Shown here piece after piece: positions 182 to 44,500 of a stretch of DNA of 64,000 bases. The notes under the pieces were generated by a model. The model was given only the letters and a program-made list of their open reading frames with translations, did not search any database and was not told the origin of the DNA. The stretch's first letter is position 1. Every line of letters starts with the position of its first letter. The DNA comes from Savitreella phatthalungensis. Its lineage: Eukaryota. The translations under genes were made by a program, and so were the position numbers. The stretch lies in assembly GCA_051599415.1 (NCBI GenBank), contig AP039712.1, forward strand, positions 1 through 64,000, written 5' to 3'.

Positions 182-269
182 CCCCCCGCCCGGTTTACCT
201 GAAACATCCCATGCCATTTGCTCCCCACATTCCTACTCTTAAAAACCCTGCCATCTGTTTCATCTGCAA

Positions 270-1140
270 TTGCACCATCACCTGCCAAATGCCGTTTCCT
301 GCATGTCACCTGCCACACGCTGTTGCCTGCATGTTGCCTGTCAAATGCCGTTATCTGCACTGCCACCTGTCAAACATGTTTATCTGCTACGCTCCCGCTG
401 GTCGTCAACATCATCACCTTGCTACCTCCTTGCTGCCCCCTTGTTGCTTCACTCCCTGCTGTGCTCCTGCTCTCACTCCTGCTGCTGTTGCTTACTTTGT
501 CACTCCATGTCACTCCACTCTCCTTGACCCATACACTGCTCATCCTTCTCACTTCTATCACCCTCATCTATTTGACATTCTTCTCCATTTACCCAACACA
601 CCCCATGCAAAATCACCCCACATTCTTATTGTTAACTGCCTCCCCATCTGATTCATCTGCAACTGCACTGTTGCCTGCTGAATGCTGTTACCTGCATGTC
701 ACCTGCTAAATCCTGCTACCTGAACTGCCACCTGTCAAATGCCGTTACCTGCACTGCCTCTTGTCAAACACTGTTACCTGCCCTGCTGCCTGGCAAATGC
801 CGTTACCTGCCAAAATGCCTGTCAATTGTTGAATCCACTCATCAATTCCATTACCTGCCCTGTCATCCCGTCAAATGCTGTTACTGCCCTGTCTCTGTCA
901 AATGTTCTTACCTGCCTGGTCTCCTTCAAATCCTGTTATTTGCACGGTTGTCTGCCATGTGCTGTTGCCTGCACCATCATCTGTCACCCGGTCTTATCTG
1001 CACTGTCACTTGTGTCATCATCTCTCAAATACCGTTACCTCCGCTACTACTTGCCTCATTGCCCTGCTCTGTGGCCTGGCATTTGTCAAACCCTGGATTG
1101 GCCAATTGCTGTTGACCTGTCAACCCCTGTTGTGTATCAC
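270..1140. repeat. Degenerate ~29-bp subtelomeric minisatellite (consensus approx. CACCTGTCAAATGCCGTTACCTGCACTGC)
   Basis: Recurrent CTGTCAAATGC(C/T)GTTAC(C/T)TGC units at ~278-385 and ~660-915, with decayed copies to ~1140. Confidence 0.75.
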
Positions 1141-1427
1141 ACACTTGTTGCCCGCACAATACCTTGTTTCATTACTGCACTGCCATTGGCTGAATGATGT
1201 CATCTGTTCAAACTGTGCTGTCACTTGATGCGTCATTGCTGCACTGTCACTTGTCACTGTCATTTGTCACCTGGCCCTGCCACTGACTCTGTCTCTGCTT
1301 GTTATAAACACCACCTGCTTGGCCCTGGCCCTATCCTGTTGCCTGCATTCTCATTCCTCTGTCTGTAATTGGCACTGGCGCCTGTTGTGCAACATCAATC
1401 GACTGCAATTGACTGCAATGTCACATG

Positions 1428-1500
1428 GCATGCACTGTTTCCTCCACTGTTGCTTGTCACATCGCATGCACTGTTACCTCCACTGTTGCTTGTCAAATCC
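1428..1500. repeat. ~36-bp tandem duplication (GCATGCACTGTT(T/A)CCTCCACTGTTGCTTGTCA(C/A)ATC) x2
   Basis: Two near-identical adjacent copies are visible. Confidence 0.8.
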
Positions 1501-1699
1501 ATTGCTTGCACTGCGCTGTGCCCTTCATGCCACGACTGACTTCAATTCACTCTCACTTGCTCCTCTTGACTGTCTTGTGCACTGTCGCATGTACTTGCCA
1601 CTCTCATGCACTGTAATCTGTCCACTATGTTGTGTCTGTGCCTGTCTGTGCTCCTTGTATGCCTCATTCTACTATCTAGTCTGTGTTTCATTGACTGTG

Positions 1700-2010
1700 A
1701 TGGCTGCTACTGCTACCACACTGACTACTTCTGACATTCCCTTCACTCCTTCTAATGCTGCCACTACTACAGCTACTGCTGCATTTACTACTGCTGCTGT
1801 TCCTACTGCTGCTACTGCTACTACTGCCATCAGCACCACCATTACCACTGCTACTGCTGCTACTACTACTGCTGGTGGGCATGTTGCTGCCGTGCTGTGC
1901 CGTGCTGTGCTGTGCTGTGCTGTGCTGTGCTGTGCTGCTGCTACTGCTGCTGCTACTGCTGCTGCGACTGCTGCTGCGACTGCCGCTGCTACTGCTGCTG
2001 CTACTGCTGA
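1700..2010. repeat. Compound microsatellite: (GCT/ACT)n trinucleotides flanking a (GCTGT)n pentamer array at ~1885-1935
   Basis: Seen directly. Confidence 0.9.
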
Positions 2011-2039
2011 TGGCAGGCATGCTACAGATTCTCCGAGCG

Positions 2040-2216
2040 CCGCAGTTTGATTTTGCAGTTTTGTTTCGCAGTTTGGGTTTGCAATGTGGTCTTTGCAGTT
2101 TGATCTTTGCTGTTTGGTCTTTGCAGTTTGATCTTTGCTGTTTGGTCTTTGCAGTTTGGCCTTTGCAGTTTGGTTTTGGCAGTTTGATTTTGCAGTCTGG
2201 TCTTGCAGTCTGGTCC
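2040..2216. repeat. ~14-bp minisatellite (TCTTTGCAGTTTG(G/A))n, about 12 degenerate copies
   Basis: TTTGCAGTTTG cores repeat at ~13-14 bp spacing. Confidence 0.85.
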
Positions 2217-5049
2217 TGCGTTCTGATTCATCCCTGACTGCTGTCGCAGAGGACGGCCGCAGGACCCAAGAGCGACGGACAAGCAACACAGACACAAGCC
2301 TGACAACATAGGGGAACACAGGCGGAGTCAACCAGAGAACACAGGGAGATACAAACAAGTACAAACAGACACAGAGGGACTACAAGAGACGGTCTAGGCA
2401 GTGACACTGACCATGCTATAACTGATACAAACCACAACTCTGCTGACATGGCAGGTTGGTAGGGGGTACAAAAGAACACAACATGCTGTACGGAGACAGC
2501 ATGCCAGATATCCCCGATACCAGGACCTAGCACAGAACCATACTATTTGACAGCTCCATACAGGGCTGCTATCTTGTCATACATAGAGCAAGTGATTGCG
2601 GAAGTGACAGCGTCGTGTACAAACCGTATATGGTCGATCTGAGCCACAGAGTGGTCGCAACAACTGTAGATTATAAGTTAGGGATGCAATGCAGTGTTCC
2701 ATTGGTGAATTCATGGCTACAATCCGGCTCCGCTGAAAACAGTTTGGAATTTTCGAACAGAATATGATTAGATCATCGAGTTCCGAATTCTTCTCGTTCA
2801 ACCATGAAAGTCACACGCCGTCGCCCTTGCTGATCAATCAAAAGACTTTCGGAATCTCTTCATCACTGCCATGCAAGAGCTCTTGTTGAGGACGACGGCG
2901 ACTTGCGCGCGCGCATTTTCACGCTCGACACGACTGATAGACACTGTGGGGCCATCACTTATGCAGTAACCCAGAACCGTCTCGAGCTCAGAAACGCATC
3001 AACAAGGCTTTTCTGCTGCCGCCGAGCAATCTGTCAATCCGATGTCCCGAGGAATAACCTCTGCTATCATTGCGCCAGCCTTTTCTAAATGGGTGCGCTC
3101 TGCCTGCAGCCTTGTGTGTCCCTCTGTTTATCACTAACGCTTTGCACACTGTGCCTAGCAGCTGTTGTAGAATCGGTGGGCAGTCTGCAACGGGTTTCAA
3201 TTATTTGTCATCGGCTCGGCAGCATTTCCGCCTTTTCATAGCGAAAACAGCTTGACCTCAACTCAAACATTTGTATTCCTAGTTGAGCAATTTGTGCCTT
3301 TAGAGCACTCCTGCTGCTCAATTGAAATTCGCAGTGATCCAAAAAAACGCTTTGAGCAGAACTTGTATTTCGGTTATGCATGCATGGAAAGAAGTCAATG
3401 TCATCAGGATTCATGGTTTGACGTCAAGAATTCAGTTGGATGTTTGCTAGTGTCAATTTGGACTATGCGACCATCAGAAGCAACAGACGGGCCTTCATCA
3501 TTGTCTGCCATAGCCGCATTTGATAGAGATTAAGGCGCAAATCCACATGAGCTTGTCATTTGCTGAAGATTTGCGGTTTTCAAGTATCACTGAAGCGCGT
3601 CTCAACGGTCCGAGACGCCCATTCCGCCTATCCAGTGTCACAAATCGGCCACGCAGCACTGCCTGTAGCGACCATTTCTTGCCAATATCAGCCCTGCTTT
3701 TGTGTTTGATAAGTATGCTTGATCAGGACTGAGAGCTATTTGAGACTTTATAAAGCCCCCATTGTCGTCCGATGGGCCTTGTGCAAATGCGTCTCGCACC
3801 TCAAGATTGGACGGGGCAATCACTGTCACACACCGATTGTTCACCTTGTGGGCGGTTTCTCTTTGGACATTGAGGCTTGATCTTTCTTCAGGATGAAATA
3901 ATCTGCTAAATTCCAACGCATATACGCACGCGTATACCCTTTGTGCGACTGGGGTCAACACGGACTTCGTTGCAATGGACCGCTATTGCTGCTGCTCAAT
4001 AGCAGTCATTCATCTGGCTGGATAGCACGCAGCCATCTCGTACAGTTCACCACAGCGCACTTGCACGACTGCAAAGAGGCAATGGCGACTGTTGAAATAT
4101 CAGAGTGTCATGCATGAACGGTCCCAGCTTACTCGACTTCCTGGCACAAATGGTCTAGTCGTCCGGCCAGCTTGTATGCAATCGTACAAGATGCCATCGC
4201 TCCCGCAAACACATGGCTCTGCACTATACATGACAAGCTTGTAGCCGTGTACTGGAGCTGTCAATTAGGTGCAGTGTCGTTCTGTGCTAGGTGTCGGTGT
4301 TTCTCGCACGCCTTCTGTGTCGGCGTGCTACATCCTCTTACCTGTATGTCTAGGATGCGTCATACAATGGTCAGGGCAAGTCAGTGAGCCCAATATCTCG
4401 TGATCTGCCGGAATTATTTGAAATGTTCGTATTTCTCGATTTGCTTCTTCAAGTAAAGCCTCCTGTGCCGTTCGGTCCGCGTCCGTGTCGCTTCTTCATT
4501 CGCTCTTGGGTCCTGCGACTGTCCATTGCGGCCATATATTCTTGTGTTGCATTCACGCGTTACTTCAGATGGTGTGCGGCCTAGTTGAACTCATCCGGCC
4601 GCACCAAGATGTAGTGCAGCTATAGCTAGCTGCATGCCCGAACGGTCCGCAGATTATCAGCAGGATCACGAAGTGAAGGATGACTGCCCTAGCAGACTGC
4701 AAGCACGCTAAGGAGTGGCTTGAAAGAAAAGTGACGTCGATGTCTACACGTGTACGGCTTGTCACGAAACCCGGGCGGCCTGGTGGAGTGCTGAAAATTG
4801 CCTCACCCTCGTGTCACTCATTCGCAAGTCTGCTCAAGAACCACGCGGGATCAAAATGGCGTACACAATGGAAGTATTGCCATTAGGGCGGGCCTTCAAG
4901 CACGGAACGCATGATGAGGAATTGCGCAGAACCGTTTCTGTGATGGATCCATTCCTGTTATGGATCGCGTGACGCATTGGTAGAGAAGATCGATGTTTTC
5001 AGATTAAATCACGAGTGTCGCAAATGGACACCAGGGCAAATTCAGATAA

Positions 5050-5666
5050 CTAGTCCTGTTCGTCAAACTTCTGCTCGACGAGATCCGGGATGTCGTCCTC
5101 GTCATCGTCTGCTTCCTTCGCGTCCGCGCCGGCGCCGGCTCCTGCTGCTGCCTTGGCTTCAGCTTGAGCCTGTGACATTTGCTGATAAGACTCTGCGAGC
5201 TTGCGGAGAGAGGCAAGCGACTCTGGGCCGAGCTGGTTCAGGATGCCCGGCAAGAGCTCGCTCAGCTCTTTGTTTTCACCTCGACCATAGACTGCGAACG
5301 TGTTCGACTGCACAGCGGCATGGACTTTACATAGTCAGTCAGACGGAGCTCTTTCTCGAACGTTCAAAGAGAGAAATAGCCTTACCTTGGACGCGAGAAA
5401 AGTGAAGCACAGATCCATCCTCCTTGAACATATTGACCTCGTCAATGCCCGTGATGGGCTGAACATTGATCTTTTTCAGGGCTGCCTGGATCTTCCGGTC
5501 ATCTGCAGCCGAGTTGCGCTGGACCTTCTTAATCGTACGGCGGGGAGTACCCTTGCCGCCCGTGCGGGGGGCACCGCGAGCTTGCAAGCGCTTGAGTACC
5601 TCGGGATCTTGTCCGTGTCAGCAAAGATGTATGCACGTCGCATGAGAACTCAGATCACTTACCCAT
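5050..5666 (-). CDS. EGD1: Nascent polypeptide-associated complex beta subunit (BTF3/Egd1), 3 exons: 5666-5663, 5607-5386, 5324-5050
   Basis: Spliced product reads [25 protein letters not shown]...[58 protein letters not shown]. Donors are GTAAG, branch points CTGAC, acceptors AAG. Confidence 0.93.
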
Positions 5667-5864
5667 AACGTCCTATCGTCCTGTGGTCTCCTTGAGCTAT
5701 AGAGCAAAATGTCGCATTTTCTTAGTTGAAGAACCGTGCGAAATCGCTGAGGATTGCGATTCATGCATTGGGACACGAATGATTCTTGCATGAAGGATAT
5801 TGTGATCAACCAAAAGGCTTGCTATGATATTCCAAACTAACTGGTGCGTGCTGGCGATTCTCGC

Positions 5865-7279
5865 TCAGTTCACGCTAGTGTCTTGCCCGGCCTGTTGCTG
5901 AAGATGGGTGGCGAGGGCGACAAGAGCGGCGCCAACGCCGGAGCCGTCCTTGGCGACGCCGATGACAAAGTTGTGAGCCTTGTCGCCGAGTATCTCAACG
6001 AGAGCCTCACGCATCATTTCCTGAAAGCCTGGGTAGTACTCCACAACGGAGCCGTCCACTCCGATATTATACTTTCGCTCCAGCCCTCCAGTCGACATGG
6101 CCAATGCCGCGATGGGAATGGCGGAGAGGCGCGCCGCACGCCGACCGATTGCGAAAGTGATATCCTTCAGAGCCTTCCGATTGTCCGTTGTGTCTTCCAG
6201 GCCGAGCTCCTTCGCAATCTTGCCGGTGTTCTCGAGAGTGCCCGTGTCTGCGCAAATCTCGGACATGATGGCTGTGTCGAGTGTGAATGGCTCGGATGCA
6301 CTAGCTCCATAGAGGGCAAGCGTCTGCCGCAATAGCTCTCCCAGGAACATGCCCGAGATGCGCTTCTCGAACAGCTGTTTGCCGGGATTGACCGAAATCG
6401 CATCAAGTGCGCGGTCAAACCTTGTGTCTGGCAGAACGGTGAGCTTTCCATCGTCAAACGCACCCCACTCTGTGTTGACGACCATGTGCGTAGGGTTGCC
6501 CGGGATCTCCGCCTTGAGCTTCTTGAGCTTCTTGATGTCCTCGAGATATGCGCCATTTGTACCGGTTCCAAAGATGGCTCCCATATCAGCCCCACCCGTC
6601 TGCGGCGAGCCATAAGACCGTGCCATCATAGTGCCGACAGTGTCATTGACCAGGGCGACGACATGCACCGGTACGCTTTTGGCGTTCAGCTGCTGTTGAA
6701 GAAGAGCGACGACGTCCTGTCCGACTGCTGATTCGACGGTGAAGCCTTTCGTCCATCGCAGAAGAATGCCACTGTCAATTGCGGTCTGTTCGACGGGAAA
6801 GCTGAAGGTGAAACCGAGACGCAGATGGTTGTCCGGGTCGTGGTCGTATGCCTCGCCGTGATGTGTCTTCACGAAGTCTTCGACCTTTTCCGCAATGAAA
6901 CCAAAAAGCTCTTCTTGCTTGGGTGTCACCTGCAGGGCCTTAGAAACGGGGTACTTGGCTTGCTCCATCTCAAAAGTGCCATCGCCGAGCAGAGTCACGG
7001 AGCACACACGAAGATTCGTGCCTCCGAGATCAAGGGCAAGGTAGGTGCCGGTCTCGGATCCATTGGGAACCTGTGTCACGTACGATGGAATCATTGCGAG
7101 TGGCTGATTGTCGTTGGACAATCCATAATCGGCAAGTTCGTCAAAGCGTCTCACAGCATCCTTGAGTTGCTGTGACGAAAATTCATACTCGGAGACAATC
7201 TAGTGAGCAGGGTTAGCGCCATGTCTTGAGTTGTTCATACAGAGCGACTTACTCGTTCTCGTTCGCCGGATAGAGACAT
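5865..7279 (-). CDS. Hexokinase/glucokinase, 2 exons (7279-7253, 7199-5865)
   Basis: Motifs LALDLGGTNLRV, LGFTFSFP, LLRWTKGF, VNDTVGT, IFGTGTNGAY, NTEWGAFD, DGSGVGAAL. Intron GTAAGT..GCTAAC..TAG restores the frame from MSLSGERER. Confidence 0.95.
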
Positions 7280-41516: not shown

Positions 41517-44500
41517 CGTATACTTTATTCCATCGTCGCGCTTCAATGCCCCGCCGCTCGAAAGAGAGTCTGAAATATGAGATATGGTCAACAGCGTCGG
41601 TTATTGCTCTGACCGAGCTGGATTTGGCGGGTTCAAATATATGTTTGAGTAGGAGTCTGAGTATGTGCAGGTTATGTATATTGGACTTCGGGTGTGTCAG
41701 AGAAGTGATGAAAGACGATTAATGTCCGGTCGTCAGGATGGTAATATACCGAACAGTGAAGCACAAGCTCGGCAGACTAGAGATCGGGCTATCTGTGCGA
41801 CTAGCTTGTCTAGCGTGCTGACCGAGTACAGAGGTCTAAGGATGTCTCTGATGTCGAGACAATTTTGAATCAGTGTCATAGAGTTCGTTTCTCGCCTCGC
41901 TCATTCCCTGTGGTCCTTCATCTTCACCCTACACCTCGCCCTGCTATTTGGTGGATACTACACATCAGGCTCAATGACAATGACCCTTTGTCGTTCTGCC
42001 TTGTCCACAATCGGATCAGAGCCTAACAGACGGGGCATCCGTCACTTGATCACGAGTCATCGACGGACTGCGCTACTTACACAGGCGCGTGAGCTTGCGT
42101 AGAGTCTCTCCTGCCTCTGCTCAAAGCCACCAGAGCTCTTGTATCAATCTAGCGGGTCTCAGCACAGGTGGGTCTGTCAGCCACAGATCTTGTGGGTTGA
42201 ACGCCAAAAAGTGACGCCCTTTACGCCGCCGCCCCCTCCGCCTATGTAAGCCCAGCAGTGTCAATTTCTTCCATACTGAGGGCAGAGGTTTGTGGATGTA
42301 TTTGGAAAGGGCAAGAGATTAGCTTTTCTAAAATACTCTAGGCATTGAAGCTTCCCTAACTGAGATCGGCTGTTCAGATGAATATGGCTGCCCCTCCCTC
42401 CGATCCCTGCTTCCGTCTCATATACCCCAGTGCCAGGCGTGGTCGTCCGAGAAAAACTCCGGAGGTGGGTCACTTCTTTCCCGTCATTGGGTCCTATTTG
42501 CAAGTGGTTCACCGTCCAGGTCACCAAGAAATCATCGGGCGGAGGGACACAGCCATCCGTCACAGCGCTCAAGCGATAAGACCTTCCCGCAATGCAACAA
42601 TGGATCATACGTCCTCCAAAACCTGTGTATTTGACTAGGGCTTGGCTTCGTGGATTTTGACCCTATCTCCTTGCTAGATCTCCTTTGCCTCGGGAAGCCA
42701 CATGACTGTGGATCAGCTCGCGTCGTGGCCTGGCTCGTGAGCACACTTTGGCGCACGCGTGTTGCGGACGCTGGCATTGATGCCCTTTGTCGCACGCGCC
42801 CCGCCGATCGCATGGCAAAATCCTTGCACGTCGTTGCAAGCGAGTGCGTTCCATCCGCTCCTAGTGTGCGGTGTGTGCGGCTAGCTTTACGATTGTGAAT
42901 CTATAGGCAGCCAGGAAACTCATGCGTTCTGACACACACACCTCAGATACGACGTTCGATCCGGGAACGAAACCAATCATTTTGAGATCAGCTTGCGCGA
43001 TTGGTGCTGTAAGTTAGGATCTCCGCCAATTTTCGAAAACGTTGTCCGTTATCTAGTGGAGAAGAAGTGACTTTCTTTCTATCTTTGGTCTCTGAAATCA
43101 TGGGCACAATTGTGATGCTGAAGAAGGTCAGATCGTCTAAAGCAGAATCCAGCTGCGAACACTTGGTTAGATAAAATATGCAAAGCGACAACCCTTTCCA
43201 GGCTCGTGAACTACTGAGCTACCGTGCCCTGTTCAGGCCGGCGTAGCTTTAGAGCGGGACAGATCATCTGAAGATTGGCTACTAGCTCATCGCTCTGTCT
43301 AATCGAAACACATTGGACTTCTTCGCACGCGCAAGTCGGATCCGAAGACGATCGTCTGTCAGCGAGTCATTTAGTGAGGGCATGATGACCGTCTCGAAGG
43401 ATTCCAGTTGGTCTTTTCATCGGTCAAACTGCGCGCAACGACTAACACTGACTTGAGTTCTGCATCGTTTACCTTATCACCCGTCTGCGAGACTATGGAA
43501 ATTTCGACTAAGTGTAGATAAGATTCCTGTCCGTAAGTGCATAATAATTGAACTCCACCTGAGCTTAGCAATAACCCCTCGAAATGTATATCGGTTTGCA
43601 GATCTCTCGTCCACAGACGTCACCCAAATTTGTTTTCTTAGCCAAGGACGATTGAGCCTCAGCTTTTTATAGCTGAAGGTTCTGCAAGTGCTTTGGTGCG
43701 TGGAGTTCGAACCCGTTTCAGGAAGGACTTCCGGGAGAAAAGCGGGAAGGAGAGTCAGGAAAGGAGAAGATCCAGCACGTAGCATGAAACAAGTGAAATA
43801 TCGCAAATTCATCCATTTCCTGCTGTTCTGAGCATCTCCAGCATCTCCTTGGGGTTATTTCCCCGCAATAGAGGGCAAATCCAATGAGTGGCATCTCGGG
43901 TAAAGTAGAATACGACGTCAATGCTGGAACTTGAGCTGCGCCTTGTGAATGTTCCGCATGATCACTACATGCGCCTGAAGCAGAACCGCGCCTAACAGAT
44001 GAAGGAGAAATTCTAGCGAGATTGCTTGCCTGGCGTGGACCCGCGCAACCCCGTCTTTAGATCTTTATTGGGCCGCCCGGCGGAAGGCGCCAATTACAAC
44101 GTATTGTACAGAACCGCCCCTGGCTAACTCTGCATCCAAGAGCTCTTGCAACGAAACACAAGCGATGTTCGACGTCATATGGCCACTGTGCATCGGTGAA
44201 GGGCGAGGATTATTCGTGATTCATCTAGGGATTGTATTGGAAAACCCGCGGTACAGTGGCACTAGTGGCTGTGACAAAGCGAGATTGCATGTGCCCAAAC
44301 TAATACATCCATGAACGACTAGTCGTCTTATGAGAACTCTGCAGTTTGTGGGTCAAGAAGCAGCCGTTCAGTGAGGACGTACGTGTAGTGCGGCTGGTGA
44401 CATGCGTGAACATAAAGAAACAACGGAGATTTAGGAGATTCACCACTCGAAGCTCGAGACACGGACGTATTGTCGATTGAACTTGTCAGCCCACAGAGTC

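Follow-up and report, generated by a model that had tools for sequence, protein, structure and literature searches.

A CpG-poor block of multi-copy DNA at a chromosome end of the yeast Savitreella phatthalungensis, possibly shaped by repeat-restricted CpG decay

Background

CpG-directed changes of repeated DNA have been described in several groups of fungi: transposons of Pucciniomycotina show hypermutation at TpCpG (Horns et al. 2012, PMC3318451), and transposable elements (TEs) of Tuber melanosporum, Microbotryum, Puccinia and Melampsora carry a CpG signature (Amselem et al. 2015, PMC4352252). In the comparison of Amselem et al., the CpG signature is tied to a Masc2-like Dnmt1, and RID/Masc1 is tied to CpA/CpT. 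Here, we describe a CpG-poor block of repeats next to a telomere of Savitreella phatthalungensis, at positions 190 to about 2621 of a stretch of 64,000 nucleotides (assembly GCA_051599415.1, contig AP039712.1, positions 1 to 64,000 of the forward strand) that we refer to as the window. The block shares with the CpG-signature TEs that the repeats are poor in CpG in favour of TpG/CpA and the rest of the genome is not. There are three differences: the described cases are basidiomycetes or Pezizomycotina and the host of the block belongs to the Taphrinales; their CpG signature has been tied to a Masc2-like Dnmt1, whereas the nearest documented relative of our host is entered with only a DNMT4/RID-type enzyme; and their CpG signature is found in annotated TEs, here in telomere-associated satellites and one short element. 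The block thus probably represents a new lineage for a type of footprint that is already described.

In the yeast Cryptococcus neoformans, DNMT5-dependent CG methylation is reportedly located at centromeric and subtelomeric repeats. Maintenance of this methylation by DNMT5 has been described (bioRxiv 10.1101/149385). The parallel is that of a yeast with a CG mark confined to repeat-rich chromosome regions, which could persist and decay in the long term; in Savitreella such a mark is putative. The difference is that DNMT5 is entered as not detected in Taphrina deformans, a relative of the host.

Repeat-induced point mutation (RIP) of Neurospora and methylation induced premeiotically (MIP) of Ascobolus, the latter consisting of methylation only, resemble our case in that their action is restricted to homologous or repeated DNA, and the RID/Masc1 family is present in a relative of Savitreella. 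Unlike DNA altered by Neurospora RIP, the block has negative RIP indices, and CpA and TpG are enriched.

A preliminary description of this DNA, made from the sequence alone, had proposed a CpG-specific footprint of methylation or of a RIP-like genome defence and had taken Schizosaccharomyces pombe and Saccharomyces cerevisiae as comparison. These two yeasts are unsuitable: the host belongs to the Taphrinales, and its relative T. deformans is entered in the supplement of PMC10538959 (Funabiki) with DNMT4, which groups with Neurospora RID in the tree, a UHRF1-like protein, a class II zf-4CXXC_R1 protein (CDCA7F) and HELLS. RID- and DIM-2-like sequences of T. deformans and Saitoella are reported by van Wyk et al. 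(2021, PMC7882544). RIP screens of T. deformans and other Taphrinomycotina, as reported by Cisse et al. (2013, PMC3648899) and in PMC7882544, used CpA/TpA-based indices and were negative, and the block likewise contains no AT-rich, TpA-rich relic of RIP. In our judgement, screens of this kind (composite RIP index, sliding windows) would miss a footprint that is limited to CpG, 2.4 kb long and located at contig ends.

Whether early-diverging ascomycete yeasts have a genome defence that is based on DNA methylation or is RIP-like is unsettled: the Taphrina inventories list a RID-type methyltransferase and two families of hemimethyl-CpG readers, despite the negative RIP screens (PMC10538959, PMC3648899, PMC7882544). 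Our literature search found no report of 5-methylcytosine or of CpG-directed repeat mutation in Taphrinales (the survey of Bewick et al. 2019 was outside its scope), and only taxonomy papers on Savitreella. With a sharp, repeat-bounded CpG footprint, a yeast that is small and culturable and has apparently been read by nanopore already would make the question directly testable, and the block would offer a compact system for the role of DNMT4 in a lineage that has DNMT4 only.

Results and discussion

CpG depletion is confined to the telomere-associated block

Between positions 190 and 2560, the extent originally proposed for the block, CG occurs 41 times with 140.2 expected, an observed/expected ratio (o/e) of 0.29. 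TG (311 observed, 142.2 expected; 2.19) and CA (214 observed, 138.1 expected; 1.55) are as abundant as they had seemed by eye, and the early estimate of about two dozen CG in the first ~1.5 kb of C-rich sequence is close to the 22 counted in 190-1690. The low-CpG block is real but extends beyond 2560, to about 2621-2650. For 190 to ~2621 the CpG o/e is 0.27-0.30, with 44 CG remaining in 190-2621; against the window background of 1.06 this has a Poisson probability of 1.8e-25. Relative to an expectation that takes into account how many pyrimidine-purine steps there are, how the bases are composed locally and what the background preferences of the window are, the block lacks 134 CG, a deficit that is matched by TG (+117) and CA (+28) over 190-2621. 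Apparently, about 70% of the CpGs are gone from the block, to TG and CA: low CpG (0.29 versus 1.06) is combined with a compensating excess of TpG and CpA, as in a footprint of decay. CpG is low in each of the four NCG and the four CGN contexts. The lowest NCG is TCG, with an o/e of 0.16 versus 1.37 in the rest of the window; this may be a likeness to the TpCpG type of Pucciniomycotina, albeit with only 7 sites and in a block where all NCG are low.

The remainder of the window had been described as CG-rich, and this holds throughout: in the 236 sliding 2-kb windows that cover the DNA beyond position 3000, the CpG o/e is never outside 0.88-1.24 (median 1.07). With windows of 400 bp, 48 of 1272 fall below 0.55, and 47 of these lie in 51-2750; the lone outlier outside the block (42101-42500, o/e 0.55) is marginal. 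Low CpG is also not general to noncoding DNA, as 18 segments without open reading frames (ORFs) elsewhere in the window have a CpG o/e of 0.79-1.17 (pooled 0.97).

Within the block, three dissimilar parts are each CpG-poor: the telomere-associated, pyrimidine-rich zone at 185-1690 (22 CG observed, 85.3 expected at background o/e), an array of micro- and minisatellites at 1691-2242 (10 observed, 38.2 expected) and an element that is not a satellite at 2243-2621 (12 observed, 25.8 expected, P=0.002), the other dinucleotides of which are near normal.

The edge of the CpG-poor DNA is the edge of the repeats

For an estimate of copy number, contigs of two runs that are probably from the source sample (X1 and X2) were aligned to 190-4700 at a likeness of at least 80%; repeats were skipped in the contig alignment, and the bin 1851-2001 is without cover. 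Single-copy depth is 90.5 in X1 and 189.5 in X2, flat in all bins of 2908-4700 except 4418-4568. Across 190-2756, the summed contig depth of X1 is 2.4-50 times this value. It is highest in 2243-2621, where it reaches 26-50 times single-copy depth in X1 and, at 2304-2454 in X2, as much as 117 times; contig joints cluster at 2240-2242. The bin 2757-2907 still has a depth of 170.8 (X1) and 236.6 (X2).

Three lines of evidence place the repeat edge and the CpG edge at the same position, about 2601-2630. First, in both X1 and X2 the single-copy contig begins at 2601 and matches the window without a difference up to 4700. Second, eleven paralogous records diverge at 2620-2630 into differing flanks that contain CpG. 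Third, the CpG o/e is back to 0.99 in the 250-bp window 2626-2875. The segment 2622-2760 is, by contig depth and CpG o/e, a transition to single-copy DNA with normal CpG. The proposed restriction to repeats was thus borne out: depletion is found in multi-copy DNA only and ends, with a sharp edge, at the junction of repeat and unique DNA. This statement covers one chromosome end only.

The same repeats are present in a run from another study that is labelled as another organism (X3), without the unique flank. No contig aligned from a run with the label of the source organism but from another sample (X6), which is not evidence of absence. Either the label spans diverged strains, or X3 assembled only high-copy DNA.

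Copies of the repeats differ at CG, TG and CA sites

The preliminary description had read CA and TG at the same position of related repeat units as products of CpG deamination. The unit variants that it quoted are present (GCCGTT and GCTGTT; CATGTCACCTG at ~302 and CATGTTGCCTG at ~330); AATGCCGTT occurs at 288, 344, 738 and 796, and AATGCTGTT at 681 and 874. Within the 29-bp repeat, five units read CG in one C/T column and six read TG; further copies in the genome have CA in this column, at 802 and 1034. A larger comparison is offered by an internal duplication on the + strand, 208-387 and 602-781. Its 178 aligned positions have 37 differences, of which 23 are transitions; these include four CA<->TG double differences (equal to eight transitions) and one CG<->TG site. 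With 44 CA/TG steps and transitions as frequent as observed, only 0.73 such doubles are expected (P=0.007).

Between genomic copies, contexts could be tallied for the 40 best-supported of 473 variable places, with unpolarised changes. Transitions account for 28 of the 40, and 16 of these transitions touch CG, TG or CA sites (15 if place 1099, coupled to a G>T at 1100, is set aside). TG>CA doubles are found at 672/673 and 830/831, the first being the same site as one of those in the internal duplication. As far as letters in aligned copies can tell, the differences are in line with CpG decay, but they are suggestive only.

A proposed explanation and its difficulties

The block is the part of a Taphrinales yeast chromosome in which multi-copy repeats adjoin the telomere. 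The depletion of CpG, its coincidence with repeated DNA and the variation between CG, TG and CA at the same sites would most likely be explained by cytosine-5 methylation that is targeted to these repeats, followed by deamination. A C>T change at CpG would give TpG when it occurs on the + strand and CpA when it occurs on the - strand, and single-copy DNA only 30 bp further in is untouched. The agent could be a MIP-like methylation mark on the repeats, or a RID/Masc1-type (DNMT4) enzyme that mutates them directly, with a preference for CpG. From sequence evidence, we give methyltransferase-dependent CpG decay of the repeats a probability of roughly 50%. What we infer from the pattern is the agent, be it methylation or a methyltransferase-like enzyme, and its target, the repeats as such and not chromosome ends. 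The broader claim, that Taphrinales have an active, DNMT4-based, CpG-directed methylation or mutation of repeats that marks telomere-associated DNA, unlike the CpA-directed RIP of Neurospora, is tentative, and we regard it as rather doubtful.

Several observations weigh against this explanation, and some of them concern the dinucleotides besides CpG. In 190-1690, ApG occurs once on the + strand with 42.7 expected by base composition (265 A x 242 G / 1501), and even among the 99 purine-purine steps of this zone AG is found once with 25.5 expected. The only ApG of the entire zone 71-1770 (~1.7 kb) is at 1678, and earlier ones are found only in the leader at 1-78. The 242 G of 190-1690 are preceded by T in 202 cases, by C in 22, by G in 17 and by A in one; GpG and GpA are also depleted. 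The paralogue fragments displayed for this zone are likewise without AG. The ApG-free zone is a second compositional rule, superimposed on the block and beyond the mechanism of CpG decay. The CpG-specificity that was originally claimed goes too far: CpG is depleted in all contexts, but in 190-1690 the deficit of ApG is stronger still, and a marked strand asymmetry is likewise beyond CpG decay.

The asymmetry is a further difficulty. On the + strand, which is C-rich, the TG excess is about four times the CA excess (+117 and +28), and the equality of strands that belongs to symmetric CpG methylation was not found. Amplification of TG-bearing or CTG-type units could mimic such an asymmetry. Strand-specific deamination of the G-rich strand with sparing of methylated CpG is a less likely solution: the sparing would explain why C of the G-rich strand survives almost only at former CpG positions, and with this the ApG-free zone.

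The differences between copies are not limited to CpG decay either. The X1 copies have 330 variable places with 224 transitions and 106 transversions, so that the spectrum is not one of pure C>T change; among the unpolarised transitions, C>T (74) and T>C (56) are roughly balanced, next to 52 G>A and 42 A>G. T>C differences lie at TG in 7 of 11 cases versus a baseline of 41% (202 of 496 T), which are small numbers, and with only 40 of 473 places visible any enrichment by context is based on small numbers as well. At 2472, 2475 and 2478, clustered G>A differences are in AG, GG and CG contexts and thus not CpG-limited.

Finally, DNMT1, Dim2 and DNMT5 are not entered for T. deformans in the table of PMC10538959, so that the nearest documented relative gives no sign of a methylase for the maintenance of CpG marks. 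Of the methylation or RIP-like defence that had been proposed for this DNA, the footprint and the restriction to repeats have held, and the purely CpG-specific spectrum has not.

Alternative explanations

The strongest competitor of methyltransferase-dependent decay, although in our view an unlikely one, is founder composition: mini- and microsatellites may have grown by slippage and unequal exchange from seeds of the CTG/TGC/CAC type that had neither CG nor AG, and the low CpG would then be an inherited vocabulary rather than the product of a mutation pressure. CTG (159) and TGC (148) are indeed the commonest trinucleotides of 190-2230, Tandem Repeats Finder (TRF) returned 27 rows, and 11% of 10-mers are repeated versus 1.5% in dinucleotide shuffles; the deficits of ApG, GpG and GpA and the fourfold excess of TG over CA also fit a limited set of motifs. 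In a masking test, all TRF arrays, all repeated 10-mers and the internal duplicate were removed. The tandem parts are CpG-poorer, with 16 of the 44 CG in the 1334 masked bases. However, the remaining 1098 of 2432 bases still have only 28 CpG with 63.6 expected (o/e 0.44, P=4.6e-8 versus background): depletion outlasts the masking, and the composition of tandem motifs explains only part of it. In addition, 1400 of the ~1492 10-mers in 190-1690 are distinct, showing that this zone is not a simple satellite, and the non-satellite element 2243-2621 is depleted of CpG with its other dinucleotides being normal. Ancestry alone would not lead one to expect CA<->TG doubles or sites with the three states CG, TG and CA. 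If the footprint were nevertheless mere satellite composition, this would be an ordinary subtelomere.

An effect of the chromosome end without any methylation is less probable still. Recurrent exposure of single strands, or replication or transcription that passes through the terminal 2.5 kb in one direction, may cause strand-biased deamination, which, with skewed repair, would account at once for the loss of CpG, the asymmetry between purines and pyrimidines and the scarcity of ApG. The asymmetry in 190-1690 has the polarity of the telomere (C 33%, G 16%), TG is in far greater excess than CA, C on the G-rich strand survives almost only before A (202 of 242) and the G>A cluster at 2472-2478 is strand-coherent, all of which would suit such an environment. 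But the asymmetry reverses at about 2230, from where the + strand is purine-rich, yet CpG depletion continues to 2621; the depletion has its edge at the repeat boundary and does not decay with distance. Moreover, a purine/pyrimidine skew cannot come from transitions, and exposure of the G-rich strand should lead to an excess of CA on the + strand, whereas the observed excess is of TG.

That the composition is an artefact of sequencing or assembly, with systematic miscalls in a contig end built from few nanopore reads, is very improbable. It could be suspected from the leader at 1-78, which looks like an adapter, from position 349, which is C in the window and T in X1 (3966.3 of 3966.3 depth, 7 contigs), X3 (17.3 of 17.3) and X2 (130.8 of 151.2), and from two differences in the best-matching X1 contig for 353-616. 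The two sample runs, in contrast, reproduce parts of the block exactly (X1 2129-2372 with 0 differences; 105 pieces of at least 99% identity), many divergent copies and X3, from a different study, have the same composition, and the remainder of the contig is compositionally normal.

Classical RIP of the Neurospora type leaves TpA/ApT above 0.89, (CpA+TpG)/(ApC+GpT) below 1.03, a composite RIP index (CRI) above 0 and AT-enrichment. Although RIP would find repeated DNA here and a relative has a RID-type gene, conversion of CpA to TpA is excluded as origin of the block by the values of 190-2621 (0.68, 1.60 and CRI -0.92), by a GC content of 0.50 versus 0.53 for the rest of the window, and by TG and CA that are enriched instead of consumed, just as the contrast to Neurospora had been anticipated; the segment 2243-2621 alone is borderline with a CRI of 0.07.

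Structure of the block

The contig starts with a leader (1-78, + strand) that, read directly, is non-genomic in look and does not belong to the block. It looks like an untrimmed nanopore (Oxford Nanopore Technologies) ligation adapter with native barcode, directly ahead of the telomere; if this identity is right, it is a contamination of the assembly and indicates that the contig end is a real end of a molecule. It is followed by the telomere at 79-184, 17.7 copies of the C-strand repeat (ACCCTA/CCCTAA) on the + strand (TRF period 6, 100% matches).

The telomere-associated zone at 185-1690 (+ strand; base counts and TRF) is 66% C+T, CpG-poor and free of ApG, and contains degenerate tandem units of 28/29 bp, 10-13 bp and 36 bp. 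All three + frames of 71-1770 are open over long stretches. A coding origin of the block was rejected: these open frames stem from the rarity of TAG, TAA and TGA, and Pfam families were found in none of eight block ORFs, among them 76-651, 636-1115 and 1229-2050 on the + strand and 1672-2379 and 1688-2227 on the - strand. An origin from degenerate telomere repeats was rejected as well, as purine/pyrimidine autocorrelation in the block has a weak signal at lag 3 (0.10) and none at lag 6.

At 1691-2242 (+ strand), CTG/GCT-rich micro- and minisatellites with units of 5, 12 and 14 bp are CpG-poor with normal ApG; TRF arrays are at 1756-2009 and 2042-2215. A few CG units are found amid TG units (TGCCG twice, TGCTG eight times).

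The high-copy element at 2243-2621 (+ strand) was delimited by depth, contig joints and dinucleotides. With its length of ~380 bp and TGT...ACA ends, it may perhaps be a solo long terminal repeat; neither a target-site duplication at the element nor a transposon protein in the window was seen. Other genomic copies of the element are joined in opposite orientation, and their flanks differ. Its part 2481-2512 gave 0 loci in two scans of metagenome contigs, exact and degenerate.

Host and neighbouring genes

Pfam scans place the block, from 185 to ~2621, between the telomere and ordinary housekeeping genes, among which are those for a glucokinase (5865-7199), a GATA factor of the AreA type and a nucleoporin of the Nup35 type. 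At NCBI, a protein named for Savitreella phatthalungensis matches the glucokinase ORF with 100% identity, and the next best named relatives are those of Taphrina deformans (66%) and Protomyces (65%). By this match the host is Savitreella phatthalungensis or a very close relative, thus a Taphrinales yeast that is not close to baker's or fission yeast. With genes so near to the telomere, the subtelomere is only ~2.5 kb long; single-copy DNA begins ~2.5 kb from the telomere, the conserved glucokinase gene lies at 5.9-7.2 kb, and no subtelomeric gene family was seen in 2622-7199. Among the 38 ORFs of the 64-kb window covered by Pfam scans, none encodes a cytosine-5 DNA methyltransferase.

Two further features of the window were observed. 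At 4418-4568, the depth rises to 178.4 in X1 (versus 90.5) and to 1033.1 in X2 (versus 189.5), indicating a short repeated segment, which has normal CpG; no tRNA gene was found at this position. The segment 26001-27000 has a GC content of 0.64, with 0.39 G on the + strand, and lies inside an ORF on the - strand with WH1/WH2 domains (WASP-like), presumably in its proline-rich region.

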